Assembly (NCBI GenBank): GCA_002720855.1
Contig: PBIN01000014.1
Span: 777,619 to 841,618 of the forward strand
DNA length: 64,000 bases
Direction: 5' to 3'
Source of the DNA: Rhodospirillaceae bacterium
Lineage (GTDB): Bacteria > Pseudomonadota > Alphaproteobacteria > MPNO01 > UBA2964
The notes under the pieces were generated by a model, which did no database searches, was not told where the DNA came from, and saw nothing but the letters and a program-made list of their open reading frames with translations. Position numbers and translations under genes: made by a program. How positions within the stretch are numbered: the first letter of the stretch is position 1; each line of letters starts with the position of its first letter. Positions 11,276 to 30,087 of this stretch are shown in pieces.

Positions 11276-11803
11276 ATGGTCTCACAACCGTTCAGACTTG
11301 ACGCGTTCGGTCGGGAACATCATCGTTCCGAAATGACTGCAACCGCACCGCCACAGGCTCAAAAATATATGGAAATCGCGCTCGCCGAAGCGTCGGAAGC
11401 AGCTCTCAGGGATGAAGTCCCTGTTGGCGCTGTCATCGTTGATAGTCATACCCGCGAAGTACTGGCGACCGCAGGTAATCGAACGGAAGAGCTTAAGGAC
11501 GCAACCGCACATGCGGAAATGCTGGTTCTACGGGCGGCGGCAAACACTTATGGCGGAACGCGTCTCGTCGATTGCGATTTATATGTGACGCTAGAGCCCT
11601 GTGCGATGTGCGCGGCAGCGATCTCAATGGCGCGCATTCGCCGGTTGTATTTTGGAGCATCAGATCCCAAAAGTGGTGGTGTAGAAAATGGACCCCGCTT
11701 TTTTACCCAACCGACATGCCATCATAAACCAGACGTTTATGGCGGTATTGATGAATTGAGATCACGCCGCATGCTGCAGGAGTTCTTCGAAGCTAGGCGC
11801 TAG
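11276..11803 (+). CDS. tadA: tRNA adenosine(34) deaminase TadA
   Basis: CDA zinc motifs HAEMLVLR and TLEPCAMCAAAI. RBS AAGGGG lies upstream of the ATG at 11276. The catalytic domain may start at a later Met (11333 or 11369). Confidence 0.85.
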   Translation: MVSQPFRLDAFGREHHRSEMTATAPPQAQKYMEIALAEASEAALRDEVPVGAVIVDSHTREVLATAGNRTEELKDATAHAEMLVLRAAANTYGGTRLVDCDLYVTLEPCAMCAAAISMARIRRLYFGASDPKSGGVENGPRFFTQPTCHHKPDVYGGIDELRSRRMLQEFFEARR

Positions 11804-11850
11804 CCAGCGACGCGCTATAGGAGGGGTATAGACAATCTATTTCAAAGGTA

Positions 11851-15125: not shown

Positions 15126-15722
15126 TCAGCTCAATACGTGCGGTATCAGCGTCGGGCCGTCATTGAGTCTTACGTCACCCGTTTCCAGGTCGTAGGTTCG
15201 TTGTTTAAAGGTACCGGCTTTTTGAGCACGAACGATGAATGCCATACTGTTTTCCGGTCCGCCATGTTCCTGATGGATAGCGCCCGGCGGGACCGCATCT
15301 ACGTCACCAGGTCCGATATCATGACAGCTGACTTGCTCTATCTGGGCAGGTCCTTCGTTACGAGGGGCATCATCAGTTCTTTTATATCTGTACATGGTCT
15401 CGTGACCCTCGATGAGCCCATAAAGCGTCCAAACATCGCCATGGTCGTGAACGCTGGTAACCGACTTCGCTTTGCGAACAGTTGCATTAAAGACAAATCC
15501 GTAATCTGGATCCTCGTAAAACAGCAGGTTCTTTACCTTTGGCGCGCCTTCCACAGTTAGCGGCCAGGTTTTGGAGCTTTCGATCAATTGTGGATCGGCC
15601 AGAAGCGGACCCATAGTAACCCGGATTTCCGCCCACAACTTGTCTGCTTCCAGATTTTGCGCGTATAGCGCCCTGATTCTATCGACAAATTTACGCGCGG
15701 CGGGAAGCGGTGGTTTTTCCAT
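15126..15722 (-). CDS. Cupin-fold protein, cysteine dioxygenase type I-like (thiol dioxygenase family)
   Basis: SVHDHGDVWTLYGLIEGHE resembles the CDO metal-binding H-x-H cupin motif 1. 198 aa. Confidence 0.45.
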   Translation of the reverse strand: MEKPPLPAARKFVDRIRALYAQNLEADKLWAEIRVTMGPLLADPQLIESSKTWPLTVEGAPKVKNLLFYEDPDYGFVFNATVRKAKSVTSVHDHGDVWTLYGLIEGHETMYRYKRTDDAPRNEGPAQIEQVSCHDIGPGDVDAVPPGAIHQEHGGPENSMAFIVRAQKAGTFKQRTYDLETGDVRLNDGPTLIPHVLS

Positions 15723-15938
15723 TAATCTAACTCCCTATACCAGCACCTATCATTGCAATTTTGATGGCATCTATCCAGTCAGGAATATCCTGAACATGTG
15801 TCAGCAAATCCACATTACATCGCGGTGATGTGTTGGCAACTACCCAATTCATTAATCGTGAGGGCCATTTAGCTGTTCCTTTGATTTTAACCTTTTGATT
15901 AACAACAATAAAATTTGTCCCTTGTTTGAAGCTGTTCT

Positions 15939-15954
15939 TGGCACAGTTTTTGCA
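15939..15954 (+). promoter_or_regulatory. Sigma54 (RpoN) -24/-12 promoter for dctPQM
   Basis: TGGCAC-agttt-TTGCA is an exact match to the TGGCAC-N5-TTGCW consensus. It lies 78 nt upstream of the dctP ATG. Confidence 0.8.
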
Positions 15955-16031
15955 AATTTTGATGCGCCACAAACAATTGGATCGTTCCACGATCGATACA
16001 AAGGGCAATTCAACGATAGGAAGGGCTACCC

Positions 16032-17036
16032 ATGAATAAAATCATTTTGAGCGCTGCCGCTTTAGCAGCGGTAACAAGTTTTTTGACCGCCGCATACGCG
16101 AAATGCGATGCAGGCGAAATCGTAATTAAATTCAGTCACGTCACAAACACTGACCGACATCCGAAGGGCATTGCCGCAACATTGCTCTCCAAACGCGTCA
16201 ACGCGGAAATGAATGGCAAGGCTTGTATGAAGGTCTATCCTAATTCGAGCCTCTACAACGATAACAAGGTTCTCGAGGCCATGTTACAGGGTGACGTACA
16301 ATTGGCGGCGCCCTCCTTGTCCAAGTTCGAAAAGTTTACCAAGAAGTTCCGGATTTTCGATTTGCCGTTCATGTTTCAGGACATCAATGCAGTTGATCGT
16401 TTCCAGAATTCTAAGGCCGGGCAGGCACTCAAGAACTCTATGAAGCGTCGTGGCCTGCAGGGACTGGCTTTCTGGCACAATGGCATGAAGCAGATGTCGG
16501 CGAGTAAGCCGCTTATTAAGCCTTCCGATGCAAAGGGGCTTAAATTCCGTGTACAGCCGTCGGAAGTACTGGTCTCCCAATTCAAACAATTGGGTGCCAA
16601 TCCGCAAAAGATGGCGTTTAAGGAAGTCTATGGTGCATTGCAAACCAAGGTCGTCGATGGACAGGAAAACACCTGGTCAAATATCTACGGCAAAAAATTC
16701 TTCGAAGTTCAGAACGGTGTTACCGAAACCAATCACGGCATTATTGACTATCTGGTGGTCACTTCCGTCGATTGGATGAAGGGTTTGCCTAAGAATGTTC
16801 GGAGCCAATTCACCAAAATTCTGACGGAAGTTACGGTGTTGCGTAACAAGGAAGCTTTTAACGTGAACCAGGCCAACAAGAAAAAGATCTTAGCGTCCGG
16901 CGGAAAGGTCCGTACTCTTACGGCTGCACAGCGCGCTGCCTGGGTTAAAGCGTTGCGGCCTGTCTGGAATAAGTTTGAGGGTGATGTTGGCGCCGATATG
17001 ATTAAGGCGGCGCAAAACGCAAACGCGGGAAGCTAA
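16032..17036 (+). CDS. dctP: TRAP transporter substrate-binding protein DctP (C4-dicarboxylate binding)
   Basis: Signal peptide plus DctP-family core (IKFSHVTNTDRHPKG...FWHNGMKQM...). 334 aa. Confidence 0.9.
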   Translation: MNKIILSAAALAAVTSFLTAAYAKCDAGEIVIKFSHVTNTDRHPKGIAATLLSKRVNAEMNGKACMKVYPNSSLYNDNKVLEAMLQGDVQLAAPSLSKFEKFTKKFRIFDLPFMFQDINAVDRFQNSKAGQALKNSMKRRGLQGLAFWHNGMKQMSASKPLIKPSDAKGLKFRVQPSEVLVSQFKQLGANPQKMAFKEVYGALQTKVVDGQENTWSNIYGKKFFEVQNGVTETNHGIIDYLVVTSVDWMKGLPKNVRSQFTKILTEVTVLRNKEAFNVNQANKKKILASGGKVRTLTAAQRAAWVKALRPVWNKFEGDVGADMIKAAQNANAGS

Positions 17037-17144
17037 TCAGACACCGGGGTTTAAGGCGTCTATAATGATGCGGTCGGCTTTTGCCGGCCGCATTTTCCCT
17101 ACAAAAAGCCGTATAAGCGGATAGTTGGGAACAGGAAGGTTTGC

Positions 17145-17798
17145 ATGACGGAACAATCGTCACCGGACGGAGGATGGGCTGATCGGATTGAGGAAACGCT
17201 GATCGCCGTATTTTTAGGGTTAATGACCCTTATTACATTTGCCAACGTCGTCGCACGCTACGTTTTTAATGACAATATCTTGTGGGCTCTTGAGGCCACG
17301 GTATTTCTGTTCGCCTGGATGGTTTTGCTTGGCGCTTGTTATGGCGTCAAAAAATCACTGCATCTCGGTGTCGATATTGTCGTCGCGAAGTTATCGCCCT
17401 CCGGAAAGAGACTAATGGGAATATGCGCGGCTGCCGCCTGTTTGCTTTTCGCTGTGCTTTTGCTCAAAGGTGGCTGGGACTACTGGTACCCATTTGTCAC
17501 CAAACGGGCATTTCTGGAAACCAATGACGTTCCGATGCCGGAATTTCTCCAGTTTATCGCGATCTGGATGAATGAGGGCGAGAAGTACGAAAAAATTCCA
17601 CGATTTATTCCATATGCCGTTTTGCCCTTGAGTCTCGCGCTGATGACCTGGCGTTTCGGTCAGGCGGGCTGGCAAATTTGGCGGGGAGAGCGGACGCTCC
17701 TCATCGCGTCTCACGAGGCGGAAGAAATGATGCAGGAGTTCGAAGAAGAGCGCGCTGGTGGATCCGAAAAGGATCGTGTTCAAAGGAGCGATTGTTAG
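17145..17798 (+). CDS. dctQ: TRAP transporter small permease DctQ
   Basis: Four predicted TM segments. It sits between dctP and dctM and overlaps dctM at a TAG/ATG junction. Confidence 0.8.
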   Translation: MTEQSSPDGGWADRIEETLIAVFLGLMTLITFANVVARYVFNDNILWALEATVFLFAWMVLLGACYGVKKSLHLGVDIVVAKLSPSGKRLMGICAAAACLLFAVLLLKGGWDYWYPFVTKRAFLETNDVPMPEFLQFIAIWMNEGEKYEKIPRFIPYAVLPLSLALMTWRFGQAGWQIWRGERTLLIASHEAEEMMQEFEEERAGGSEKDRVQRSDC

Positions 17799-19163
17799 AT
17801 GGAAGTCGCTCTTCTATTTGGCCTTGTAATCGGATTGATGGCAATCGGCGTCCCGGTTGCTGTTTCACTCGGTCTGTCGAGCATCTTGTTCTTATTGATG
17901 TTCTCCGATGGTTCTCTCGCTTCCATTGCGCAGACATTATTTTCCGCTTTTGACGGACATTACACTTTGCTGGCCATTCCGTTTTTCATACTCGCCTCGA
18001 GTTTCATGTCGACGGGTGGCGTCGCCCGCCGAATTATTCGTTTTGCAATTGCAGTGGTCGGCCATTTGAAAGGTGGCCTCGCAATTGCATCGGTTTTTGC
18101 CTGTATGATGTTCGCTGCCTTGTCAGGTTCGTCACCGGCTACCGTTGTTGCGATTGGGTCGATTGTCATCGCCGGCATGCGCGAAGTAGGATATACGCGG
18201 GAATTTGCCGCCGGTGTCATTTGTAACGCAGGTACATTGGGCATTTTAATTCCACCCTCTATCGTCATGGTGGTCTATGCCGCGGCGACAGATGTTTCCG
18301 TTGGACGAATGTTCTTGGCTGGCGTAATTCCAGGAATCATCGCCGGTCTCATGCTGATGATCGGGATATACGTTGCCGCTCGATATAGAGGATTGCCCTC
18401 GCAACCTTGGGCAGGGTGGGGCGAACTTTGGCAATCTTCCCGGGACGCTTTTTGGGGACTCTTGTTAATTTTTATCATTCTGGGCGGAATATACGGTGGT
18501 GTGTTTACGCCAACCGAAGCTGCCGCGGTTGCTGCCGTTTATGCGTTCCTTATCGCAAATTTCGTGTATTGCGATATGGGGCCCTTTGCGCAGGCTGGTA
18601 AAGTCGGATTGGCGATTATCAATCGTACTGTTTCCGCACTTTGGCACCCTGATACAAGAAAGACCCTGTTTGAGGCCGGTAAATTGACAATCATGCTGAT
18701 GTTTATCATTGCTAATGCATTGATTCTAAAGCATGTATTGACCGAAGAGCGTATACCTCAGGTCATTGCCGAAACCATGCTAGCGGCAGGGTTCGGGCCT
18801 ATTGTCTTTCTTATAGTTGTTAACGTGATACTGCTCATAGGGGGGCAGTTCATGGAGCCGTCCGGGCTGCTTATTATCGTCGCACCTCTTGTATTTCCGA
18901 TCGCCATAGAGCTGGGGATCGATCCCATCCATCTCGGCATCATCATGGTTGTAAACATGGAGATCGGCATGATAACGCCCCCGGTCGGTCTCAACTTGTT
19001 TGTGACGGCCGGTGTGGCCGAAATGTCGGTTCTCGATGTTGTCAAAGCCGCGCTTCCGTGGGTTAGCATTATGTTTGTCTTTTTAATTCTCGTTACTTAC
19101 GTACCCTGGATTTCGACAGTGTTGCCAACCGCTTTGATGGGGCCAGAAATCATCACCAAATAA
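17799..19163 (+). CDS. dctM: TRAP transporter large permease DctM
   Basis: 454-aa polytopic membrane protein of the DctM family (GGVARRIIRFA..., ...PPVGLNLFV...). Confidence 0.9.
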   Translation: MEVALLFGLVIGLMAIGVPVAVSLGLSSILFLLMFSDGSLASIAQTLFSAFDGHYTLLAIPFFILASSFMSTGGVARRIIRFAIAVVGHLKGGLAIASVFACMMFAALSGSSPATVVAIGSIVIAGMREVGYTREFAAGVICNAGTLGILIPPSIVMVVYAAATDVSVGRMFLAGVIPGIIAGLMLMIGIYVAARYRGLPSQPWAGWGELWQSSRDAFWGLLLIFIILGGIYGGVFTPTEAAAVAAVYAFLIANFVYCDMGPFAQAGKVGLAIINRTVSALWHPDTRKTLFEAGKLTIMLMFIIANALILKHVLTEERIPQVIAETMLAAGFGPIVFLIVVNVILLIGGQFMEPSGLLIIVAPLVFPIAIELGIDPIHLGIIMVVNMEIGMITPPVGLNLFVTAGVAEMSVLDVVKAALPWVSIMFVFLILVTYVPWISTVLPTALMGPEIITK

Positions 19164-19171
19164 AGATTTGG

Positions 19172-19198
19172 CCGCGCTCCGGTGCGGAAATTTTGTTT
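19172..19198 (+). terminator. Probable intrinsic terminator after dctM
   Basis: 6-bp stem with one G-U pair: CCGCGC-tccg-GTGCGG, followed by AAATTTTGTTT. Confidence 0.45.
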
Positions 19199-19253
19199 AC
19201 TTTCAGGTGTAACTGGCGCATTAAGTTGCACGAATTTTATTAGGGTCGTCATC

Positions 19254-19820
19254 ATGCGAATTTTTATTCGGACAGTTTTCGTTTTGGCAATCTTCTCCAT
19301 GATTTTGCCTTCTGCTTTATTGCCGACGGCCACTTTTGCGCAGCGTGTGCCGACACAGCCGGCAGCAGAAAACACCGGTAACAACTCCCCTCGTGTTGGC
19401 GAACGGATCGGCGACTGGATTTTTCAATGTCAGGCATTGTCGGCCAGCGACACGCGCTGTGTAATTTTTCAACAACTGGTCAACCAGAAAACGAGGCAAC
19501 CCGTCTTGAGGGCAACGCTTGCACCGCTTGGCGCGCCCAAAAAAATTGGGCTCATCGTTGTTGCGCCACTCGGCATATTTCTTGGAACAGGGATAGCTGG
19601 CAAAATTGATGAAGGAGAGCAGTTCAATTTTGTCCTACAAAGATGTACTCAACGCGGTTGCGTGGCAGCAACGGAAGTTTCTGACAGTATGAAAGCCGCG
19701 CTCGTCAAAGGAAATAGATTGGTTGTCGGGTTTAAACCGACAGCAAATGGCAAGCCGGTTCAATTGGGTGTTTCTCTCAAGGGTGTTGCTGCCGGACTAA
19801 AGGCTCTGAAAGTAAATTAG
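19254..19820 (+). CDS. Invasion-associated locus B (IalB) family periplasmic protein
   Basis: Signal peptide, then W..C..A and C-x-x-x-G-C motifs (DWIFQCQAL...LQRCTQRGCVA) typical of alphaproteobacterial IalB. ATG at 19254. The track ORF starts at 19182. Confidence 0.6.
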   Translation: MRIFIRTVFVLAIFSMILPSALLPTATFAQRVPTQPAAENTGNNSPRVGERIGDWIFQCQALSASDTRCVIFQQLVNQKTRQPVLRATLAPLGAPKKIGLIVVAPLGIFLGTGIAGKIDEGEQFNFVLQRCTQRGCVAATEVSDSMKAALVKGNRLVVGFKPTANGKPVQLGVSLKGVAAGLKALKVN

Positions 19821-19942
19821 GGTCCGTGACGATAATTTTCTGTGGAAAAGTGCCGCAGAAACGTTTTTTTTACGCTAATTCTTCACTAGAAATTTAGAGC
19901 TACAGACCATCCTACGCCGCAAAACAAATAACGGTGTAGGTC

Positions 19943-20428
19943 ATGAAATCACTTTTTCCATTGGGTGCTATTTTTGTTTTCCTCGCATTTTCTCCAGTAG
20001 CTGGTAATGCTGCGGAAGAAACGGAAGAACAGCTAAAGGCCCGGCAAAAAGCTGAAGCGGAAGCCAATCGTGTGCATGCGCTTTCGGTTTTTAGCTATGT
20101 TAATCCGGTTCGTGGCAGAATCCATTCACGGAGACGGCCAATCCTGATTACCTTGAATGTTAAAGGGATCAAGGCACTTAGCAAATTCTGTCATCAAAAA
20201 CCCCTAATAGGCGAAACAATTTTAAAGGTCATCGGCTGGGGACCCGCACCAGACCTCAGCAACAAGAAAATTCTCGCAGAGAAACAGAGAGACCTTCGCG
20301 AGGCTTTTGATGCCGTATTACCCGAGAATTCTTTAAAGACTGTTTCGTTGAAGGTAGGGAGAATGGCTTCCGAATTTGGCGACGACTTAAAACTTACGGC
20401 CAAGGCCTGCAGTGTCGGCAAAGGATAA
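19943..20428 (+). CDS. Hypothetical exported protein
   Basis: 161-aa ORF with an N-terminal signal peptide. No family is recognised. Confidence 0.4.
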   Translation: MKSLFPLGAIFVFLAFSPVAGNAAEETEEQLKARQKAEAEANRVHALSVFSYVNPVRGRIHSRRRPILITLNVKGIKALSKFCHQKPLIGETILKVIGWGPAPDLSNKKILAEKQRDLREAFDAVLPENSLKTVSLKVGRMASEFGDDLKLTAKACSVGKG

Positions 20429-20434
20429 CGCCGG

Positions 20435-21810
20435 CTAAAGCTTAATGACTGCCATCTTGTCTTGTGTCATGTCGTGCATCGTGTAGCCGATGCCTCCCGT
20501 TCCATAGCCTGATTGTCGCCTGCCCGCGAAGGGCATCCAGTCGACTCTGAAGGCTGTGTGATCGTTTATCATTACGGCTGTGGCGTCCAAAGAGCGTATT
20601 AATTTCGTTGCCGTGTCCAATCGTTGTGTAAACCCGGCGGCTTGGAATGCGAAGGGCAAGGAATTTGCTCGTTCAATCGCTTCATCCAGCCCATCGTATC
20701 CATAAACCGCGACAACCGGTCCAAAGATTTCTGCAGTGGAAAGTTTAGTCTCCAAACCCGGATTAAGGATGACTGTCGGCGCGTAGGCTGTGTTACCGAT
20801 GGTTTCACCGCCACACAGAACGTTCCCACCGCTTTCACGCGCCTCGTTAACCCATTCTGAAACGCGGCTAACTTCACCGGGACGAATTAAAGGGCCAACC
20901 TCGGTTTTTTCTTCTATAGCATTTCCAACAGTCAGCTCGCCGACCTGATTGGCGATTTGGTTGGCAATCTCATCCGCCATTGGTCCAGGAACAAAAACGC
21001 GTTGCACAGATACGCAGACCTGTCCCGCATGATAAAATCCACCCTTCACAAGGAGGGGGATCATTGCGTCAATATCCGCGCTTTCATCGACGATGACCGG
21101 CGCGGCACCGCCATGTTCAAGGGCAGCACGGGTTCCCGGCGCGAGTTTAGATCTAAGCATCCATCCAACTCGGGCTGACCCGATAAAACTGAAAAAGGCC
21201 ACGCGCGGATCAGTAACCAGACGCTCAGCGGTTGCAACGTCGCAAGGAAAGAACTGGCACCATTCCGGAGGTAATCCAGATTCATGCAATATATTGACGA
21301 ACGTTTGCGCAGATAGCGGTGTATCATCCGCCGGTTTGACGATTACGGGACACCCCGTTGCGACGGCAGGGGCGACCTGATGCACGATAAGGTTCAATGG
21401 GTGATTAAATGCGGATACCGCGACGACGGGCCCAATTGGCTCTTTGCTGGTAAAGGCCATGCGACCTGCGCCAGCTGCCGTAAGGTCCATCGGCATTTCC
21501 GTGCCCACAATATGGCTCAGCTCCTTTGCTGCCAGTTGACTCCGTCTATCGCACGATCAACTTCAATGCGTGCGTCAATCAGTGGTTTGCCGCCTTCGTT
21601 TGCAATTTGGAAAGCGAGTTCTTCAAACCGGTCACGCATGCTGTTCGCGGTTTTATGGAGAATTTCAATGCGTCGATATGCAGGGAGCCAACTGGATCGG
21701 TCGCGATGTAGTTTGTCAGCCTTTGTCAGCCAGCGATCGGCTTCTTCCCAGATGCCAAATGGCAACTCGCCGATAGTTTCCAGTGAAAACGGATTGCAGA
21801 CGGTCAACAT
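20435..21810 (-). pseudogene. Aldehyde dehydrogenase family gene, split by a 1-nt frameshift near 21510-21520
   Basis: The N-terminal 97-aa ORF (21517..21810) ends ...AIDGVNWQQRS*. The C-terminal 357-aa ORF (20435..21508) continues the ALDH sequence (GTEMPMDL...FNHPLN...catalytic-Cys region QVCVSVQRVFV) in the -1 frame. One extra G in the run at about 21520-21522 would restore ...VNWAAKELSHIVGTE... Confidence 0.7.
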
Positions 21811-21912
21811 GGCAATACCCTTCGCAATTGAGCGTTATATCGCGCCCATCGCCTCAGAATATGGTGACGAAATCTGAACGAAAGATAACTTTTCCGCGAG
21901 AATACGAAAAAA

Positions 21913-23466
21913 TTAGTCCTCGAATCCGTACTCTTTCCAACGCGCGTTGACCTTATCCATGTCTTCCTTATGCGGAATGACCATAGCTGGATAACGATCA
22001 CCGTTATATTGCTCTTCCGGCTCGAAATCGAGATTGACAGTGGCGTCAATCAAAACACGGCACCATTTGCCGGTTCCGAACAACATCGGATCGCGATCTT
22101 TGAGCCTGGTTGACGGATCGAGCAAGGAGCCCCATGAACCCGGGAAGAAGACGATATCGTCTTCAGCGGCATTTACGCGATAGGCGAACGCCCAATCGAC
22201 GGCACCGTAATCATGAATGTCGATATCCTGATCAACCACCCAAATGTGCTTGTAGCGCAAATGCGATGAATTTGATCCCCAGATCGCCGCGGCGGCCTGT
22301 TTTGCTTGCCCGCGATATGTTTGATTGAGCTGGATAAACAACGTCGTTCCGTTGTTGGCCGGTGAGCAATGAACATCGGTCACGCCAGGAACGCCGGCTC
22401 GTTCAAGCACATTCCAGGCAACGCCGGCCCGCTGAACAGAACTCATGATACTGTTTTCGTTCAGCATCTTGGGTAAGGTGCCTTCCAGCGTGCCACGGAA
22501 AATCGGCTGATCACGATGGGTAATGGCCGTGACTTTTGTCACGTGCTTGGGTCCCTGGTCTCCACCAAAATATCCAGTGTATTCACCGAAGGGTCCTTCC
22601 ATCTCGAAGGTTTCGGGATCGGGGTCGATAAAGCCTTCGACCACGAGTTCCGCACTTGCAGGGACCATGATGTCGCTGGTTTCACATTTCACGAGTTCGA
22701 CGGGCTTGCCACGAATGGCGCCCATCACATCATATTCCGATACGCCTGTTGGAACTGGTGCGGAAGCGCAGAATGGCATACAGGGTTCCCAGCCATAAAC
22801 ATGCGCCACCGGCATTTTCATACCGCGGTCGGCCCATTTCTGGAAATGCACACCCCAATTTTGCGCGCGCCATAGAAGCACGGGAAGAGTGTCTTTTTGA
22901 CCTATCATACCGCGGTAAATGCCGAGATTATGGACACCCGTATCTGGGTCCATCGTGATTGTTGCCTGGAATGTATTTATATAACGGCCGCCGTCTTCGC
23001 GGTGCCATTTGGGAACCGGAAAATCATACAGATTGATTTCATCGCCCGTAACGATATTTTCTTTTACCGGACCAGTATCAACTTCCACAGGAGGAACACG
23101 CTGACCGATATAATATCGTGTCGCCTGGACCATATCCGTTACTGACGCGTCTTTTGGTAACCCGAGCGTCATAGCGATGCGCGAGAAGTTGGACATACCG
23201 CCAGTGAAGAGTTGGCTGCAACGGGCATCGTCTCCGTTGTAACCGCCTATGTTCTTAAACAGGAGGGCAGGGCCATCTCCGGTGCCAAATGCCTTACGGG
23301 CGACTGTTCCGAGCTCGCAATCCCAATCGACCTCTGCTTCGATTTCCTGAAGCTCACCTTCTTTGCGAAGCGCATCAATCCATTCCCGCAAATCACCATA
23401 GGCTTTCGGTTGTAGACGGTTTGAGACACCGCCAAAGGCATCAATTTCGTTGTCTTTTTCTGCCAT
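21913..23466 (-). CDS. UbiD-family (prFMN-dependent) decarboxylase paralog 1
   Basis: 517 aa, collinear with UbiD/Fdc-family proteins and with the adjacent paralog (roughly half identical). Shared motifs include INQTYRGQAKQ. Confidence 0.8.
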   Translation of the reverse strand: MAEKDNEIDAFGGVSNRLQPKAYGDLREWIDALRKEGELQEIEAEVDWDCELGTVARKAFGTGDGPALLFKNIGGYNGDDARCSQLFTGGMSNFSRIAMTLGLPKDASVTDMVQATRYYIGQRVPPVEVDTGPVKENIVTGDEINLYDFPVPKWHREDGGRYINTFQATITMDPDTGVHNLGIYRGMIGQKDTLPVLLWRAQNWGVHFQKWADRGMKMPVAHVYGWEPCMPFCASAPVPTGVSEYDVMGAIRGKPVELVKCETSDIMVPASAELVVEGFIDPDPETFEMEGPFGEYTGYFGGDQGPKHVTKVTAITHRDQPIFRGTLEGTLPKMLNENSIMSSVQRAGVAWNVLERAGVPGVTDVHCSPANNGTTLFIQLNQTYRGQAKQAAAAIWGSNSSHLRYKHIWVVDQDIDIHDYGAVDWAFAYRVNAAEDDIVFFPGSWGSLLDPSTRLKDRDPMLFGTGKWCRVLIDATVNLDFEPEEQYNGDRYPAMVIPHKEDMDKVNARWKEYGFED

Positions 23467-23485
23467 TCTTCTTCTTTCTCACTTT

Positions 23486-23503
23486 CCATACGCTAGCGTA
23501 TGG
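23486..23503. repeat. 18-bp perfect palindrome CCATACGCTAGCGTATGG in the 83-nt spacer between the two UbiD paralogs
   Basis: Read directly from the sequence. The plus-strand copy is followed by TTTTCTT. Confidence 0.6.
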
Positions 23504-23549
23504 TTTTCTTAATTTGACCGTTAAATTTCGTCAAGCGCATGACTCGTAT

Positions 23550-25100
23550 TCATACTGATTTAAGGGGTGGCCCCCACTTGTCCATTCCAAGTTGCGCCCA
23601 TCGATTTCGAATTCCCTCCGCATCTTCTTTTTCCGGGTGAATGGTAGGTGGATATCTCCGCCCCTGAGAATCGGGTTCGTAGTCGAGGTTGATCGTGCAG
23701 TCATATAATACCCGGTGCCACTTTCCGGTACCAAACAAATGAACGTTTGAATCCCGTGCTCTGACACTTGGGTCCAAACCAGCGCCCCAATTTTCAGGAT
23801 AAACAACCAAATCGCCTTCGCCAGCGTTGAAACGCCACGCCAAAGCCCAGTCAATTGCATCGTAATCATGCACATCAATATCAGCATCAACTACCGTAAC
23901 GTGCTTGTACCGAACGTGGGATGCCGAATTGCCCCACAGAGCAAGAGCGACCTGCTTGGCTTGACCGCGATAAGTCTGATTGATCGAAACCACCGTGTTT
24001 ACACATGCCTGGATTGGCATACCAAACACGTCAACGATTCCAGGAACGCCAGCAGATTCAAGCGCATTCCAGGCAGTGGCCGATCGTTGAATCGAGCTCA
24101 TAATCGGATTCTCGCCGTAACTTCCCGGTATTGCACCCTCGACGCAACCGCGCAGGATCGGTTTTTCCCGATGCGTAATACAGGTGATCTGGGCGACATG
24201 TTTGGGTGACCTGTCAGGTGCGTAATACCCCGTGAACTCTGCGTAGGGGCCTTCTACTTCGAATGTAGAGGGATCAGTTGAAATCCATCCTTCGATAACC
24301 ATCTCGGCATTAGCCGGAACCTGGAGCGGCACAGTCTCACAATCAACAAGATCAACCGGTTTCCCACGAATTGAACCCATAATGTCATACTCAGAGACAG
24401 CTCGTGGGATCGGCGCGCCACCGGTAAAGCCCATCGATGGTTCCCATCCGATCACGAAAGCGACCGGCATCTTGTCGCCGCGTTCCATATGTTTGGCGTA
24501 ATGTGTTCCCCAGCCTTGGGCACGCCACAAAAGAACACCGATGCGATCCTTATCGAGTACCATGCCACGATATATGCCGATATTGTGTACGTCGGTGTCC
24601 GGATCTTTGGTCACACAACCCGCATAGGTCAGGATATAGCGTCCGCCGTCACCGCGATTCCATTTGGGGACGGGGAATTTTAACAGATCGATATCGTCGC
24701 CCTTCAAAATGTGTTCTTTGACAGCACCTGTTTTGACCGTATTTGGCGTCACCTGATTGTTGAATATCGTTCGGCACACCTGGACAAGGTCGCGTACCGG
24801 TGTATCGCGCGGCATTCCAAACATCATGGCGAGCCGTGAATAGCTGCCTTGGCCGCCCGTGAATACCTGCGAGGAAACGGCATCCGAGCTGTTATAATCT
24901 TTGATATTATTAAACAGGAAAGCAGGGCCGTGGCCGGTTCCCTGACCCATCCGAATTATGTTGCCGAGTTCGACGTCCCAATCCACTTCGGCATCAATTT
25001 CCGCAAGTTCACCCTCTTTGCGCAGGGCGTCTAACCACCCGCGTAAATCGCCAAACGCGACAGGATTGCGCTCTACGCTGGATTCCGCTGGGTCAGTCAT
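23550..25100 (-). CDS. UbiD-family (prFMN-dependent) decarboxylase paralog 2
   Basis: 516 aa, collinear with paralog 1 and with UbiD. The N-terminus LRGWLDALRKEGEL resembles the UbiD N-terminus. Confidence 0.8.
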   Translation of the reverse strand: MTDPAESSVERNPVAFGDLRGWLDALRKEGELAEIDAEVDWDVELGNIIRMGQGTGHGPAFLFNNIKDYNSSDAVSSQVFTGGQGSYSRLAMMFGMPRDTPVRDLVQVCRTIFNNQVTPNTVKTGAVKEHILKGDDIDLLKFPVPKWNRGDGGRYILTYAGCVTKDPDTDVHNIGIYRGMVLDKDRIGVLLWRAQGWGTHYAKHMERGDKMPVAFVIGWEPSMGFTGGAPIPRAVSEYDIMGSIRGKPVDLVDCETVPLQVPANAEMVIEGWISTDPSTFEVEGPYAEFTGYYAPDRSPKHVAQITCITHREKPILRGCVEGAIPGSYGENPIMSSIQRSATAWNALESAGVPGIVDVFGMPIQACVNTVVSINQTYRGQAKQVALALWGNSASHVRYKHVTVVDADIDVHDYDAIDWALAWRFNAGEGDLVVYPENWGAGLDPSVRARDSNVHLFGTGKWHRVLYDCTINLDYEPDSQGRRYPPTIHPEKEDAEGIRNRWAQLGMDKWGPPLKSV

Positions 25101-25257
25101 TATGGCTACTTTCGTTTGATACTTAATTTGTCATACGGCAGGCGCGGGTACTGATAGAACATCATCCGCATAACGTCCAGCCGGGCTTTCTTGAAGTATT
25201 CGGCGCGAAGGGTTAGCTTGCAGAACAGATTGAAGCAAGACATCGGAGCAAACGGAA

Positions 25258-26082
25258 ATGCCTAAACATCTCACCCAGGATCAGGTGGATGCCTACCATC
25301 GCGATGGTTTTGTTGGTCCTATCGATTTGCTGGAGATAGAGGAAGCTGCGCAACTACGCGCCAAGATCGAAGAGGTCGAGGCGAAGATGGGCTCGCAAAT
25401 TCAAAAGCGCTGTAAAATCAAGGCACATTTGCCCTTTACCTTTCTTTGCGACGTGATTTCCCATCCGAAATTGTTGGATGCCGTGGAAGATATAATTGGG
25501 CCAAACATTTTATGCTGGGGGTCGAGTTTCTTTCAAAAAGAAGCGCATGACCCCGGATTCGTTTCCTGGCATCAGGACTCCACCTATTACGGACTTGAAC
25601 CGCCCGATACATTGACAGCCTGGCTGGCCATTTCTGAGAGTAATCTTGAAAGCGGTTGTATGGAATTTATTCCGGGCACTCATAATAGAGGGCTGATTCA
25701 CCACGAAGAATATAAGTCTGATGAAAACCTTCTCTCGCGAGGTCAAACGATTGACGGAGTAGATGAGACAAAAGCACTGCCAATGATCCTTAAGGCGGGA
25801 CAGTTCTCGTTCCACAAAGAAGATTGCGTGCACGGCTCTGCGCCAAATAAGTCCGATGACCGGCGCATTGGCCTCTCCATCCACTATGTTCCACCATCCA
25901 TTCGCGAGACCGGATTCCCCGGTGCGTCGGCTATGGTCTTACGCGGCGAAGATACCGAAGGTCATTGGGCTGTCGATATGACACCGAAACAGGATTGGGA
26001 CCCCGAATGTCTGGCCGAGTTGGACCGTGTCGCGACCATGTATACAACCGTCGCGCCGAAAGACCGGGTGTCGGCGACTTAA
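25258..26082 (+). CDS. Phytanoyl-CoA dioxygenase (PhyH) family Fe(II)/2-oxoglutarate oxygenase
   Basis: Contains WHQD and a downstream His in H-x-D...H geometry (VSWHQDSTYY ... HGSAPN). 274 aa. Confidence 0.7.
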   Translation: MPKHLTQDQVDAYHRDGFVGPIDLLEIEEAAQLRAKIEEVEAKMGSQIQKRCKIKAHLPFTFLCDVISHPKLLDAVEDIIGPNILCWGSSFFQKEAHDPGFVSWHQDSTYYGLEPPDTLTAWLAISESNLESGCMEFIPGTHNRGLIHHEEYKSDENLLSRGQTIDGVDETKALPMILKAGQFSFHKEDCVHGSAPNKSDDRRIGLSIHYVPPSIRETGFPGASAMVLRGEDTEGHWAVDMTPKQDWDPECLAELDRVATMYTTVAPKDRVSAT

Positions 26083-26087
26083 TCGCT

Positions 26088-26897
26088 GTGCCGATACCGG
26101 CGCTTCAATCCGTTCAGATTGATGGTAGCACCCTTTCCTGGCGCGAGGCGGGCGAGGGCGATGCGCTTGTAATGCTCCATGGCATTGGCGGGAGCTCAGA
26201 AAGTTGGGAAGCGCAGCTGAACGAATTAAGCAAAGTCTATCGCGTCATTGCGTGGGATATGCCGGGGTATGGCGAGTCTGATGGTTTCGAAAACCCCGCG
26301 CCTACCGTCGACCACTATGTATTACGCCTCGCACAACTATTTGACCATTTGAAATTAGAACATGCACACATTCTGGGTCAGTCTATTGCGGCAGTCATTG
26401 CAGCGAGGTTTTGCAACGACTTCCCGGAAAAATCCGCCAGTTTTATTTTTGCTCACGGCTTAACAGGGCTAGGTGGCCTCGAACCGGCCGAACGCGAAAA
26501 AGCAAAACAGGGGCGTTTGGAAGTATTTGAAGCATTGGGTCCGAAACGCTTCGCGCGCGAAAAAGGGCCAGCCATTATGAGTCCAACTGTTGACGAAGCC
26601 GCACGAGAAAAAGCGGTAAGGATCATGGCGAAGGTCCAACCAGCTGGGTTTCGCCAGGCAGTTGAGATGTTGGCAGGTGCCAATATATTTGAAGACACAT
26701 CGAAAATTCAGCTCCCGTCATTGGTCCTATGCGGGGCAGATGACCCAATTTCTCCGGAAACAGTCTGCCGGTCAGTAGTGGCTGTCCTGACAAACGCACA
26801 ATTTTGCCTTATTCCTGATGTAGGTCATTATTCGGCTTCAGAAAATCCGGTATTGTTTAATAAAGCAGTTTCGGGTTTTCTGGCCGATGTAGCGTGA
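26088..26897 (+). CDS. Alpha/beta-hydrolase fold protein
   Basis: LVMLHGIGGSSESW ... GQSIAAVIA (nucleophile-elbow-like) ... PDVGHY. The start is probably the GTG at 26088, just after the PhyH stop. The track ORF extends back to 25965 in another frame relative to phyH. Confidence 0.65.
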   Translation: MPIPALQSVQIDGSTLSWREAGEGDALVMLHGIGGSSESWEAQLNELSKVYRVIAWDMPGYGESDGFENPAPTVDHYVLRLAQLFDHLKLEHAHILGQSIAAVIAARFCNDFPEKSASFIFAHGLTGLGGLEPAEREKAKQGRLEVFEALGPKRFAREKGPAIMSPTVDEAAREKAVRIMAKVQPAGFRQAVEMLAGANIFEDTSKIQLPSLVLCGADDPISPETVCRSVVAVLTNAQFCLIPDVGHYSASENPVLFNKAVSGFLADVA

Positions 26898-27002
26898 ATT
26901 CGTTTGGTTAAATTTAGTGTTATGTTTTATTTGACGTGGTGCTACAGGCGTGTAGATTCCGCGCATTACGCGAAAGAGGTTTCTTAATAGGGAGAGAAAA
27001 TA

Positions 27003-27965
27003 ATGAAGTTAGTACCTTTTGCAATTGGTGCCGTTGCGGCCGTGGGGCTTGCTGCCTCAGCATCGGCTCAAACGTTTGGCATCGGTTCAACAAAAGCCGG
27101 TGCGGTTTCGCAAATTACGGCGACAATTTCCAAAGCAGTTTCCGAGCACGCCAAGGGCGTTCAGATGCGGAAACAGACGATGGGTGGTACGCAGCAATAT
27201 ATTCCGGTGGTTAATGCCGGAGAGCTGGGTTTCGGCATTTCAAACATTTCGCAGTATCATATGGCTCAGCAGGGTATCGCTCTGTCGAAGGGCAACAAAT
27301 ATGACAATCTGCGTCTTATCACGACGATGATGAAATTTACTGTGAGCCCGGTTGTGCCGCTAAATTCCGGTATCACGAAAACGTCTCAGCTCAAGGGCAA
27401 GAGGACACCGACAGGCTTCAAGGGCGCTCCTTTGTTCGTTCATATTTTCGGTGGCTCGCTGGCAACCGCTGACTTGACATTCAAGGATATCAAATCAGTT
27501 CCGATGGTTGGGCTCGTGCAGCATTGGCGTGCGTTCATGGCCGGGAAGATCGATTGGGCCATTGCAGCAGCCGGTTCTGGCTTTGTGAAGCAGATGAATG
27601 CCAAAATTAAAGGTGGTATCCGTCACATTTCCTTCCCGAAGGGTTCGAAATCACTTGCCGCCATGCAGAAGTGGTTTCCCAAATCAGAATGGGAAGTTGT
27701 TCAGCCTTCCAAAGGTTTGACAGGCGTTATCGAGCCGACAAACTTTGTTAGCTACGACTTCTTGCTTTGGACTCACAAAGGGCTGTCCAACGATGTTGCC
27801 TATAAGGTTGCAAAGGTCATGCATGAGCAGGTCAAGCAGCTTAAAGAAGGCGGCCCGCTGTGGCGCTCTTACAAGGCCAATAAGCGCCTCGCCAAGGATC
27901 AGGGCTATGCCTATCATCCTGGTGCTGTGAAGTACTACAAAGAAGTAGGTCTTTGGTCCCGCTAA
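27003..27965 (+). CDS. TAXI-family TRAP transporter solute-binding protein
   Basis: Signal peptide, TAXI-type core, and the characteristic C-terminal AYHPGAVKYYKE. Confidence 0.8.
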   Translation: MKLVPFAIGAVAAVGLAASASAQTFGIGSTKAGAVSQITATISKAVSEHAKGVQMRKQTMGGTQQYIPVVNAGELGFGISNISQYHMAQQGIALSKGNKYDNLRLITTMMKFTVSPVVPLNSGITKTSQLKGKRTPTGFKGAPLFVHIFGGSLATADLTFKDIKSVPMVGLVQHWRAFMAGKIDWAIAAAGSGFVKQMNAKIKGGIRHISFPKGSKSLAAMQKWFPKSEWEVVQPSKGLTGVIEPTNFVSYDFLLWTHKGLSNDVAYKVAKVMHEQVKQLKEGGPLWRSYKANKRLAKDQGYAYHPGAVKYYKEVGLWSR

Positions 27966-27999
27966 AAGACCAGAGCATTTGCTAAATAACTAATATTTT

Positions 28000-28037
28000 G
28001 CCCGCGTCCAAAAAGAGGACGCGGGCATTTTATTTTT
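28000..28037 (+). terminator. Rho-independent terminator after the TAXI binding-protein gene
   Basis: GCCCGCGTCC-aaaaagag-GACGCGGGC, followed by ATTTTATTTTT. Confidence 0.8.
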
Positions 28038-28095
28038 GAAAAACTAACCTATAATTTCCCCACAACAACCTAGGTAATTTAGCGGAGGTTTCGAC

Positions 28096-30087
28096 GTGTC
28101 CGATACGTCTTCATCGGCGGAAGCGCCAGAAAACAAGAAGGGAGCAGCGCTTCTGCAGGAATGGAAAGAAGGTCCATTGGTAAATGTACTATGTTTATCA
28201 ATGGGGGCTCTTATAACGATAATTGCGCTTAGCTGGGCCATCGAATTACCTCTTAAAGCAGGATTTCAATGGCTTGATGAGCAGGCCATGGTTGCTTGCT
28301 ATGGCCTTGTCCTAGGTATTGTTTTCATCAGATTCCCAGCAGGTGGGGGAAAGCAACGTCCATCAATACCCTGGTACGACATTTGTCTTGCAGCACTTGG
28401 ATTCGGGACCTGCGCGTACCTGTTGTGGGTATATGGGGATATTGAATTAAATCCCTTCGCGATGCGGCCGACGATGTTCTGGATCAGTCTAATTCTCCTG
28501 CCGATGACGGTGGAAGCCCTGCGGCGCACCGCCGGCATGAGTCTGACAATTATTTTTTCAACGTTCGTAATTTACGCCTATCTCGGGCATTTACTGCCTG
28601 AACACGGCTTTCTATTCCAGGCACCATACAGGCTGACGGCTGAACTCGGGACAAACAACGCCTCTATACTGGGATTGCCACTCAAAATTATCGTTTTGAC
28701 GGTTGTTCTCTTTATTTGGATGGGACAGCTGCTTCTGCACACCGGTGCATCTGAATGGTTCACAGATCTGGCTGCGGCGCTGATGGGACGCTCGCGTGGC
28801 GGGTCCGCGAAAATTGCAGTTGTGGCTTCAGGCTTCTTCGGATCGATTTCCGGATCAGCTGTTGCAAATGTCGCATCCACGGGTGTGATTACCATTCCGC
28901 TTATGCAACAAGCCGGTTACGACCGAAAGAGCTCAGGCGCCATTGAGGCGGTTGCTTCGACGGGCGGGCAAATTATGCCCCCGATTATGGGCGCCGCTGC
29001 GTTTTTGATGGCGGAGATTCTGGAGCTTGAATACACGGAAATTATACTGGCTGCTCTGGTTCCCGCAGCGCTCTATTACCTTGCTGTCTTTGTGCAGGTC
29101 GATCTTGAAGCGGCCAAAAACAAGATTGCACCTCTTCCTAAAGACCGTATTCCCCTTGTCGGGAAGGTTATGAAGGAAGGGTGGTTCTTCCTATTACCCT
29201 ACGTAATTTTGGTATGGACTCTGTTCTCGTTGAACTTGCCGCCGCAAGAATCGGCATTCTGGGCAGCTATTTCCGTTGCCATTGTTAGTTTGGTGTTTGG
29301 CTATAAGGGGCACCGCATTACACCAAAGCAAATTTGGGATTCGATTGCCGGTTGCGGTAAATCATCGGCAGATATTGTTGCTATTGGTGCGATGGCCGGG
29401 ATTATCATTTCGATCCTGGACCGCACCGGGCTTGGCCAGTCACTTACATTGCTGCTCGCTGCTGTTGGTGAAGACAGCCTGTTCCTGCTCCTGGTTCTTA
29501 CAGCGGTTGTTTCGATCTTGCTGGGAATGGGTATGCCGACATCGGCGATTTATCTGCTCCTGGCGACAATGATCGCACCATCGCTGATCAAGCTCGGCAT
29601 TCATCCCATTTCAGCGCATATGTTTGTGCTGTATTTCGGCCTGATGTCGATGATAACGCCGCCGGTTGCGATAGCGGCGTTCGCCGCGGCAAACCTTTCC
29701 GGTGCCAAGCCGATGGAGACAGGTGCGACCGCTGTTCGACTGGGCTGGATTGCCTATGTCGTGCCCTTCATTTTCGTTCTGTCGCCGGCATTAATCGGGC
29801 AGGGGACGACATTCGATATAGCATCAGCAACGATTACGGCCTTTATCGGGGTCTGGTTTGGTTCTTGCGGGTTGATTGGCTATATGTTTGGTCCGCAGAG
29901 CATGATTGGCAGGGTATTGCTTTTTGTTGCGGGGATCCTGTTGCTGCTGCCAGCTGACGCCATCGCGAATGGGTTGTTGATCAATGCCATAGGTTTGGCC
30001 ATCGGGGTGATATGGGCGCTAAAGGATTATATCGCTAATCCCAAAAAGGCAGCAGCCGAGCCAGGTGTCGGCGGTGGCGGCGAATAA
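28096..30087 (+). CDS. TRAP transporter fused 4TM/12TM permease (TAXI-type DctQM fusion)
   Basis: 663-aa polytopic protein. The N-terminal small-permease-like segment is fused to a DctM-like domain. Confidence 0.8.
   Translation: MSDTSSSAEAPENKKGAALLQEWKEGPLVNVLCLSMGALITIIALSWAIELPLKAGFQWLDEQAMVACYGLVLGIVFIRFPAGGGKQRPSIPWYDICLAALGFGTCAYLLWVYGDIELNPFAMRPTMFWISLILLPMTVEALRRTAGMSLTIIFSTFVIYAYLGHLLPEHGFLFQAPYRLTAELGTNNASILGLPLKIIVLTVVLFIWMGQLLLHTGASEWFTDLAAALMGRSRGGSAKIAVVASGFFGSISGSAVANVASTGVITIPLMQQAGYDRKSSGAIEAVASTGGQIMPPIMGAAAFLMAEILELEYTEIILAALVPAALYYLAVFVQVDLEAAKNKIAPLPKDRIPLVGKVMKEGWFFLLPYVILVWTLFSLNLPPQESAFWAAISVAIVSLVFGYKGHRITPKQIWDSIAGCGKSSADIVAIGAMAGIIISILDRTGLGQSLTLLLAAVGEDSLFLLLVLTAVVSILLGMGMPTSAIYLLLATMIAPSLIKLGIHPISAHMFVLYFGLMSMITPPVAIAAFAAANLSGAKPMETGATAVRLGWIAYVVPFIFVLSPALIGQGTTFDIASATITAFIGVWFGSCGLIGYMFGPQSMIGRVLLFVAGILLLLPADAIANGLLINAIGLAIGVIWALKDYIANPKKAAAEPGVGGGGE

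Follow-up and report, generated by a model that had tools for sequence, protein, structure and literature searches.

The 64-kb window analyzed here (64,000 nucleotides of contig PBIN01000014.1 from a Rhodospirillaceae bacterium, assembly GCA_002720855.1) contains a tandem pair of genes of the UbiD family, UbiD_A and UbiD_B, referred to below as A and B. Both are predicted to encode decarboxylases of the type that depends on prenylated flavin mononucleotide (prFMN). They form a new, uncharacterized branch of a well-known enzyme family and are not a new kind of system. The pair is probably the conserved functional unit of the locus, with B as its core enzyme. Contigs identical or near-identical to the window are found in Tara Oceans assemblies, and its close relatives are metagenome-assembled genomes (MAGs) labelled Rhodospirillaceae or Alphaproteobacteria. 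About 160 related loci were compared, namely, 79 genome loci and 81 further loci (80 from metagenomes plus L094) centered on B-type genes; clusters 4, 33, 39, 40, 53, and 64, which are antisense open reading frame (ORF) artifacts in high-GC loci, were left out. What the initial annotation had observed in this region is largely correct, with the exception of a broken aldehyde dehydrogenase (ALDH) gene. Coordinates and domains agree with two head-to-tail UbiD genes of 516 and 517 amino acids (aa) at a distance of 83 nt, the paralogs described as roughly half identical share 57% identity over 498 aa, and profile matches agree with a PhyH family oxygenase, a hydrolase, and a complete TAXI-type TRAP system transcribed divergently from the pair. 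The features of the locus, and a further ubiD gene of the window, are the following.

23550..25100, minus strand: UbiD_A, predicted prFMN-type decarboxylase of subclade A, 516 aa, first gene of the pair
21913..23466, minus strand: UbiD_B, predicted UbiD family decarboxylase of subclade B, 517 aa
23486..23503: 7-bp hairpin within the 83-nt spacer between A and B
25101..25257: divergent intergenic region between UbiD_A and the PhyH gene, 157 nt
25258..26082, plus strand: PhyH family Fe(II)/2-oxoglutarate oxygenase, 274 aa, of the hydroxylase type (HxD)
26088..26897, plus strand: alpha/beta-fold hydrolase, about 269 aa from GTG 26088
27003..27965, plus strand: TAXI family TRAP solute-binding protein, 320 aa
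27999..28027, plus strand: terminator-like hairpin between the TAXI and permease genes, 11 bp with 9 GC pairs and a T-run
28096..30087, plus strand: fused TRAP permease of the DctQM type, 663 aa
20435..21810, minus strand: ALDH pseudogene, present as ORFs of 97 and 357 aa
43320..44858, minus strand: canonical-type ubiD (4-hydroxy-3-polyprenylbenzoate decarboxylase-like), outside the locus

All three Pfam domains of the family, namely, UbiD_N, the Rift-related UbiD domain, and UbiD_C, are present in both A and B. The sole model passed is that of generic UbiD proteins, TIGR00148, with 303.7 and 306.6 bits for A and B, respectively, at a cutoff of 244.85. The second-best curated model for both proteins is VdcC, with 270 and 285 bits against a cutoff of 650, whereas the models for the alpha (PpcA, TIGR02723) and beta (PpcB, TIGR02724) subunits of phenylphosphate carboxylase gave 181 and 205 bits against 565 and 241 and 237 bits against 469, respectively. 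Membership in any named UbiD subfamily was rejected, since VdcC, PpcA/B, the SCO4490 menaquinone-pathway decarboxylase, BagN, and the UbiD NCBIfam equivalogs are all far under cutoff. The closest relatives of known structure are PhdA, HmfF, and HudA; identity to PhdA amounts to 34% for A (E value of 5e-68) and to 38% for B (2e-76), and identity to HmfF of P. thermopropionicum is 33%. Orthology with HmfF was ruled out by this identity and by the tree position of HmfF with other UbiD genes, and no UbiX (HmfG) adjoins the pair. Orthology with phthaloyl-CoA decarboxylase was rejected as well, given E values of only 5e-15 and 6e-18 to the solved 8PMK and 8OZ5 and an identity of 26% between UbiD_B and the EbN1 protein. 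A plasmid collection yielded no homolog of A or B above 35% identity, and literature searches found no paper on this UbiD clade. With a match to the generic model only, 34 to 38% identity to PhdA, and no named clade, the earlier view of the paralogs as uncharacterized holds.

In a neighbor-joining tree, built with only two reference fragments of characterized UbiD enzymes, and in the identity tables, the relatives of the pair fall into three subclades, A, B, and S, with about 55 to 60% mutual identity. In this tree, A and S are sister groups, B is the sister of both together, and PhdA is the sister of the entire clade, with HmfF grouping with a separate set of UbiD genes, termed D genes. Since B branches outside A plus S, the split between A and B is old. 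The subclades also differ in habitat: A is marine and always accompanied by B, S is mostly found in Alphaproteobacteria from soil and is usually alone, and B occurs in both. Orthologs of UbiD_B with 63 to 96% identity are widespread, many of them in the absence of A, and within the same genomes B is more conserved than A (for example, 84 to 87% versus 74 to 76%).

The active-site residues were assessed in a 99-sequence alignment, in which 40 positions are identical across the S- and D-type consensus, the canonical UbiD of the window, PhdA, and HmfF. Of these family-wide positions, 36 are kept in A and 37 in B, the N, R, E, and E residues among them. In Fdc1, R173, E277, and E282 make up the catalytic motif, and N168, H191, and E233 are the ligands of the metal and the prFMN phosphate, with H191 as a ligand of Mn2+. 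The catalytic arginine and both glutamates of the EGPxxE motif correspond to R178, E283, and E288 in A and to R185, E290, and E295 in B; they are invariant within the clades, and the catalytic residues align with R159 and E269 of PhdA. The Glu-Arg-Glu motif to which the initial annotation had drawn attention is thus retained in both paralogs. The metal-ligand asparagine (N173 in A and N180 in B) and the glutamate of the SEYD motif (E237 and E244) are kept too. The position of the Mn-ligand histidine, 23 residues after this asparagine and with matching spacing in PhdA, is occupied by G196 in A and by N203 in B. Histidine is found at this site in 32 of 34 S-type sequences, in 8 of 28 A-type sequences (from other marine lineages), and in 3 of 27 B-type sequences, most of the B-type having asparagine. 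Glycine at this site is characteristic of the A subclade of the window. Four residues further on, A and S share an invariant histidine, which is nearly invariant in B as well.

The canonical-type ubiD had been recognized as a separate gene, which is in line with its 683 bits on the polyprenylbenzoate decarboxylase model NF008175 (cutoff, 788), as compared to 168 to 181 bits for A and B. To judge from its sequence, this gene implies that the cell makes prFMN, and a ubiX gene is expected elsewhere in the genome. The 64-kb window was indeed found to lack ubiX, as stated before, and the same probe does detect UbiX at other loci. The separate ubiD also bears on the idea that the pair is a carboxylase or a biosynthetic system, for example, of an alternative quinone or cofactor pathway, which we consider next to negligible. 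UbiD enzymes are reversible in vitro, and in many genomes the chromosomal position of the pair among housekeeping genes (tadA and purD) is conserved; however, besides the presence of a canonical-type ubiD, the neighbors of the pair are variable and include transporters, no biosynthetic partner genes lie nearby, and the related clades are found in catabolic contexts.

The order of A and B is strictly maintained. Among the 79 genome loci, B lies directly downstream of the A-type gene in 24 of 24 informative cases. The 81 further B-centered loci include 30 A-then-B tandems, 4 loci with an S-like gene plus B, 33 loci with B and neither A nor S, and 12 loci with too little upstream sequence for a call; a B-only call required at least 1.7 kb of upstream sequence free of A or S. 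The genes next to B in the 33 B-only loci encode an AMP-forming ligase (17 loci), UbiX (5), a TAXI/TRAP permease (5), or TctC (5). This ligase scores 366 to 394 bits on the model of the benzoate-CoA ligase family, whose cutoff is 375. Outside the window, UbiX adjoins B-type genes in 7 loci. In the window, the hairpin of the A-B spacer is not followed by a U-tract on the coding (minus) strand and does not look like a convincing terminator, so that A and B are probably cotranscribed in this genome.

The initial annotation had suggested a single hetero-oligomeric prFMN (de)carboxylase, to which A and B would each contribute one type of subunit, by analogy to the alpha and beta subunits of phenylphosphate carboxylase. 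The tandem arrangement does fit this idea: the A-then-B order was found in 54 loci in total, A was never seen without B, and the spacers between them are short (38 to 190 nt) and free of terminators. Genes of the A/S and B lineages also occur together elsewhere, in divergent orientation in L064, in tandem in L106, L108, and L109, and within 7 kb in Propylenella, and A lacks the histidine metal ligand, as a degenerating partner subunit might. Other evidence has weakened the idea. Lone genes are common: at least 33 loci have only B, and about 30 to 50 have only S. One locus exists with and without A: in L136 (4657..15928), which belongs to a marine lineage, the A-B pair is accompanied by a molybdopterin oxidoreductase, a SnoaL-like protein, a cupin, two AMP ligases, and a PrpF family isomerase, and L156 and L157 represent the same locus with A cleanly absent. 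In L007, the complete chromosome of a MAG (OX638326.1), A and B are separated by a LysR-type gene of the opposite strand (11562..12488, minus strand), which gives B its own divergent regulator; the window has no such gene. In Propylenella, the A/S-like and the B-like gene each have their own TctC and ornithine cyclodeaminase (OCD) genes. Furthermore, the catalytic residues are complete in both A and B, and solved UbiD entries among the matches of A and B are listed under a single protein name. Characterized UbiD enzymes are known as homo-oligomers. One of them, PhdA, is hexameric (PMC10850782).

Phenylphosphate carboxylase itself shares with the pair the presence of two UbiD family paralogs side by side. 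However, A and B reach only 181 to 241 bits on models with cutoffs of 565 and 469 and thus miss them by far, B-type genes are often alone, and no gene for a gamma or delta subunit or for phenylphosphate synthase was found among all genes within 10 kb on either side. The VdcCDB, EcdCDB, and BsdBCD systems are aromatic acid decarboxylases too, and VdcC is the second-best curated model; they differ in that the scores are far below 650 and in that the locus has no gene for a small D subunit and no adjacent UbiX (the B subunit). According to the gene calls, no gene intervenes between A and B or follows immediately after them. Because lone B and S genes are common, A-less variants exist, a LysR gene intervenes in L007, and both active sites are complete, an obligate heteromer of A and B is unlikely.

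A clear link emerges between B and the transporter. The solute-binding protein was identified as a TAXI protein with 110 bits on TIGR02122 (cutoff, 84), and the fused permease reached 574 bits on TIGR02123 (cutoff, 321). In the distant genome L094, a lone B (69% identity) is flanked by an orthologous TAXI protein (68%) and an orthologous permease (61%), and this locus also encodes an HpaB-type monooxygenase, a Rieske oxygenase, and an enzyme of the benzoate-CoA ligase family. The association of B with the transporter is the one deep link of the locus, and it is real. The TAXI-TRAP genes are missing in L002, L004 to L006, and L015; the same position is held by a nonorthologous TAXI-TRAP system (29 to 43% identical) in L012, L024, and L128, and a DctM-type TRAP transporter lies beside the pair in L023. 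TAXI-TRAP importers and the tripartite tricarboxylate (TTT) type of transporter are among the four systems known to import phthalate isomers (PMC13040137, a review). The TAXI protein of the window as an ortholog of the o-phthalate TAXI protein of EbN1 was ruled out at about 25% identity. The strong, GC-rich terminator-like hairpin at 27999..28027 is probably an internal attenuator that would cut read-through, so that more binding protein than permease would be made.

The initial annotation had placed an ALDH gene after the pair, but this gene is frameshifted, and most relatives lack it. It is split by a 1-nt deletion near 21545 into a 97-aa ORF (21517..21810) and a 357-aa ORF (20435..21508) that covers positions 116 to 460 of Pfam PF00171, and other assemblies of this marine population show the break too. 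Among the relatives, the gene was detected only in L003, L007, L010, and L011: the orthologs in L003 and L011 are intact (458 aa), that in L010 is damaged (329-aa ORF), and so, probably, is that in L007, where the alignment contains an extra base. ALDH seems to be decaying independently in several lineages. The Tara variant L081, whose UbiD_A protein is identical, lacks a block of about 6 kb (about 15800..21900), and its UbiD_B is directly followed by a gene for a 198-aa protein. The missing block, which most relatives do not have either, consists of ALDH, a 161-aa protein, IalB, and DctPQM, and it is a presence/absence polymorphism within one population. The two conserved proteins that were recorded at the variable block are the following.

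15126..15722, minus strand: conserved protein of 198 aa, flanking the variable block, with no Pfam or NCBIfam match
19943..20428, plus strand: conserved protein of 161 aa, flanking the variable block, with no Pfam or NCBIfam match

The gene for the 198-aa protein is conserved beside UbiD_B in relatives that lack the ALDH block. Pairs at 68 to 72% identity have other neighbors, namely, a Tet/DHA1-like transporter of the major facilitator superfamily (MFS), a two-component system, a DctM-type TRAP transporter, or an Fe-type alcohol dehydrogenase.

The PhyH protein scores 107.8 bits on PF05721 (cutoff, 22) and has the iron triad H105/D107/H192. Its best match of known structure is 6ZYK/6ZYL (E value of 9e-37), deposited as "Monooxygenase / Uncharacterized protein." A function as a halogenase, suggested by JGI labels and by a weak match to TIGR01762, was ruled out by the HxD motif, which reads W-H105-Q-D107 where SyrB2 has H-Q-A. 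Halogenases carry alanine or glycine in place of this aspartate (His-x-Ala/Gly). Several source annotations name homologs of this protein "halogenase" although their motif is HxD. The gene adjoins the pair only in the clade of the window. Homologs at 58 to 70% identity lie beside genes for ATP synthase, a GMC oxidoreductase, or an ABC transporter, and one of them is 385 kb away from a B-type UbiD in the same genome; a link between PhyH and UbiD outside the clade of the window was looked for among these homologs, and none was found. Within the clade, the order of purD, xseA, and other housekeeping neighbors is kept as well as that of PhyH, and the synteny of PhyH is therefore no stronger than the background.

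The hydrolase reported earlier is present on the plus strand, and only its start has to be revised: a conserved N terminus (…IDGSTLSWREAGEGDALVMLHG…) lies upstream of the start of the 241-aa gene call, and translation from GTG 26088, giving 269 aa, is therefore more likely than from that start or from 25965. GTG 26088 is located 5 nt past the PhyH stop codon, a gap from which it follows that PhyH and the hydrolase probably form one operon. The best curated model of the hydrolase is PcaD, 3-oxoadipate enol-lactonase, with 97 to 102 bits, well under the cutoff of 256, and the gene is missing in L012 and L024. The PhyH-hydrolase operon is specific to this marine lineage and may act on the same compound, for example, through hydroxylation or the hydrolysis of an ester or lactone.

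These data bear on the proposal of a seven-gene module, in which the TAXI-TRAP system, PhyH, the hydrolase, A, B, and ALDH would make up one dedicated catabolic pathway. PhyH is divergent from A in every close relative with the locus, down to 66% PhyH identity, the hydrolase follows 5 nt past its stop codon with the TAXI-TRAP genes next on the same strand, and alpha/beta hydrolases together with hydroxylases (HpaB, molybdenum hydroxylases, and Rieske oxygenases) recur beside S-type and B-type UbiD genes. Nonetheless, a single pathway appears decidedly unlikely. ALDH carries a frameshift here, is broken in L010 and probably also in L007, and is lacking from most relatives; TAXI-TRAP is missing in five loci (L002, L004 to L006, and L015) and the hydrolase in two (L012 and L024); PhyH homologs with 58 to 70% identity are never adjacent to UbiD; the order of purD and xseA is as conserved as that of PhyH; and pairs that are 68 to 72% identical have wholly different neighbors. 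The proposed module does not hold in this form, as ALDH is a pseudogene on a variable segment, PhyH homologs are unlinked, and the TAXI-TRAP and hydrolase genes come and go. It is reduced to the pair plus the transporter, with a PhyH-hydrolase operon of uncertain relation and ALDH as a decaying passenger.

In the wider clade, S-type genes lie beside three-subunit molybdenum hydroxylases of the xanthine dehydrogenase family in 37 loci, and these loci often contain, in addition, alpha/beta hydrolases, a cupin, a protein with a metallo-beta-lactamase fold, HpaB, or TctCBA. In L026, L027, L031, and L050, a CoA ligase and a further UbiD are encoded divergently to the S-type gene, and this UbiD shares 67% identity with the phthaloyl-CoA decarboxylase of Aromatoleum; the ortholog in L050 (6936..8510) reaches 822 bits against the solved 8PMK. 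This ortholog was observed in MAGs labelled Hyphomicrobiales, Beijerinckiaceae, and Alphaproteobacteria, and the enzyme has so far been known from anaerobic phthalate degraders. Propylenella binzhouense (L084, SPKJ01000010.1) carries four UbiD family genes within 21 kb, along with three Tct-type transporter sets, two genes of the ornithine cyclodeaminase/mu-crystallin type, a TauE exporter, and two AMP ligases. Taken together, the gene content of these neighborhoods points consistently to aromatic dicarboxylate metabolism.

Three known systems resemble the pair and its relatives. One is phenazine-1-carboxylate decarboxylase, PhdA, from Mycobacterium fortuitum, solved as 7PDA (PMC10850782). It is the top solved match of A and B, has the three-domain UbiD architecture and the same catalytic arginine and glutamate, and is the sister in the neighbor-joining tree; in contrast, identity is only 34% for A and 38% for B, PhdA is no tandem but a single enzyme, and a phenazine substrate is unsupported here. 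The second is the hmf pathway, which comprises the 2,5-furandicarboxylate decarboxylase HmfF/HmfG, the CoA ligase HmfD, the molybdenum dehydrogenase HmfABC, and HmfE and in which decarboxylation is followed by CoA ligation; the neighborhoods of B-type and S-type genes match its order of a UbiD that takes one carboxyl group off an aromatic dicarboxylate, then a CoA ligase, a molybdenum hydroxylase, and an enzyme of the enoyl-CoA hydratase family (PMC8091172). However, the window has neither an adjacent UbiX (HmfG) nor hmfABCDE-like genes, and identity to HmfF is 33%. In isophthalate degradation, ligation precedes decarboxylation. The third is the anaerobic o-phthalate cluster of Aromatoleum, Thauera, and Azoarcus, with a CoA transferase, a UbiD-type phthaloyl-CoA decarboxylase, and UbiX, the known example of a TAXI-TRAP system next to UbiD family decarboxylases and with several UbiD paralogs: the plasmid cluster of Aromatoleum contains three UbiD genes, two UbiX genes, CoA transferases, and TAXI-TRAP. 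The third UbiD of EbN1 plasmid 2 (EBN1_RS22170; L175 11917..13431), located between two UbiX/UbiD pairs and next to an ABC transporter, is 35% identical to UbiD_B. The window differs from this cluster in that it has no CoA transferase, ligase, or UbiX, and UbiD_B is 26% identical to its decarboxylase.

The relationship with PhdA might suggest that the pair is a detoxification or resistance device against a toxic aromatic acid of the phenazine or phenolic type, rather than part of carbon catabolism. In addition to the closest solved relative being a phenazine-1-carboxylate decarboxylase (PMC10850782), the sole conserved neighbor of the pair in genomes P0025 and P0028 is a divergent efflux transporter of the Tet/DHA1-like MFS, and many marine genomes have no catabolic genes downstream of the pair. 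Such a role is nevertheless very unlikely: the identity to PhdA is only 34 to 38%, the neighbor in the clade of the window is an importer that is orthologously tied to B in L094, and B-type and S-type genes elsewhere belong to large gene clusters for catabolism that also encode CoA ligases, hydratases, and hydroxylases.

We give about an even chance to the reading in which A and B work as separate prFMN decarboxylases, B being the core enzyme, and an aromatic or heteroaromatic (di)carboxylate is imported as their substrate. A and B would each form their own homo-oligomer, like the UbiD enzymes of known structure, and would receive prFMN from a UbiX whose gene lies elsewhere in the genome. The compound imported by TAXI-TRAP would be an aromatic or heteroaromatic carboxylate and most likely has two carboxyl groups, of which B would take off one via a covalent prFMN adduct, loss of CO2, and protonation by the conserved glutamate. 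A might handle a related substrate or the second carboxyl group, which in B-only lineages would instead be activated by the enzyme of the benzoate-CoA ligase family. The distributions of A and of the ligase are nearly exclusive: the ligase is present in 17 of the 33 B-only loci versus 1 of the 30 A-B loci, a contrast that fits the proposal and that is confounded by phylogeny and habitat (marine versus soil) and by short contigs.

Beyond this confounding, several observations weigh against this reading. A heteromer would also predict the strict A-then-B tandem. The replacement of the Mn-ligand histidine by glycine in A and by asparagine in B could alter or weaken cofactor binding. The substrate of A and B is not readable from sequence, and it cannot be named, since all similarities to characterized enzymes are at most 38% and the TAXI protein of the window is about 25% identical to the o-phthalate TAXI protein of Aromatoleum aromaticum. 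With 26% identity of UbiD_B to phthaloyl-CoA decarboxylase and 33 to 38% to HmfF and PhdA, the analogy to these three enzymes therefore rests on context and not on orthology. Two genomes (L083 8681..9865 and L088 6694..7854) have an efflux-type Tet/DHA1-like MFS transporter as the neighbor of the pair; it is divergent, is the sole gene consistently beside the pair there, and is unlike importers of aromatic acids. Finally, PhyH is kept beside the pair in every locus-bearing member of the clade of the window and may be functionally tied to it.

In a more specific version, A and B would be a dedicated two-step or heteromeric prFMN system that fully decarboxylates an aromatic or heteroaromatic dicarboxylate imported by TAXI-TRAP, the second UbiD replacing the CoA ligase step of the soil relatives. 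We regard this version as rather doubtful. If true, it would mean an unrecognized, CoA-independent turnover of aromatic dicarboxylates (phthalate-like, furan-, or pyridine-) in an abundant open-ocean lineage of alphaproteobacteria, by full-decarboxylation enzymes with a modified metal site that has glycine or asparagine in place of the Mn-ligand histidine.

UbiD/prFMN enzymes are in demand as catalysts of reversible (de)carboxylation, and their known substrate classes number only about a dozen. This study defines a large unnamed clade of such proteins (A, B, and S) that is common in Burkholderiales as well as in Alphaproteobacteria from the sea and from soil. The binding protein for ligand screening and the natural locus variants with and without A may be helpful as handles, and cultured carriers of the clade are available in Propylenella binzhouense and Faunimonas sp. 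B44. As the population with the marine pair is present in many Tara Oceans assemblies, its substrate, when known, would identify a sink of an aromatic acid in seawater.

Some minor observations concern putative regulatory sites. A simple promoter and terminator scan returned sites that are no more numerous than in shuffled sequence. In the divergent region between UbiD_A and PhyH, a sigma-54 promoter was rejected by eye, as the GG-to-GC spacing is wrong. The blocks ACGCTAAC and CGGCTGGACGT...GATGTTCTATCAGTA of this region are conserved among close relatives and look like putative promoter or operator elements.

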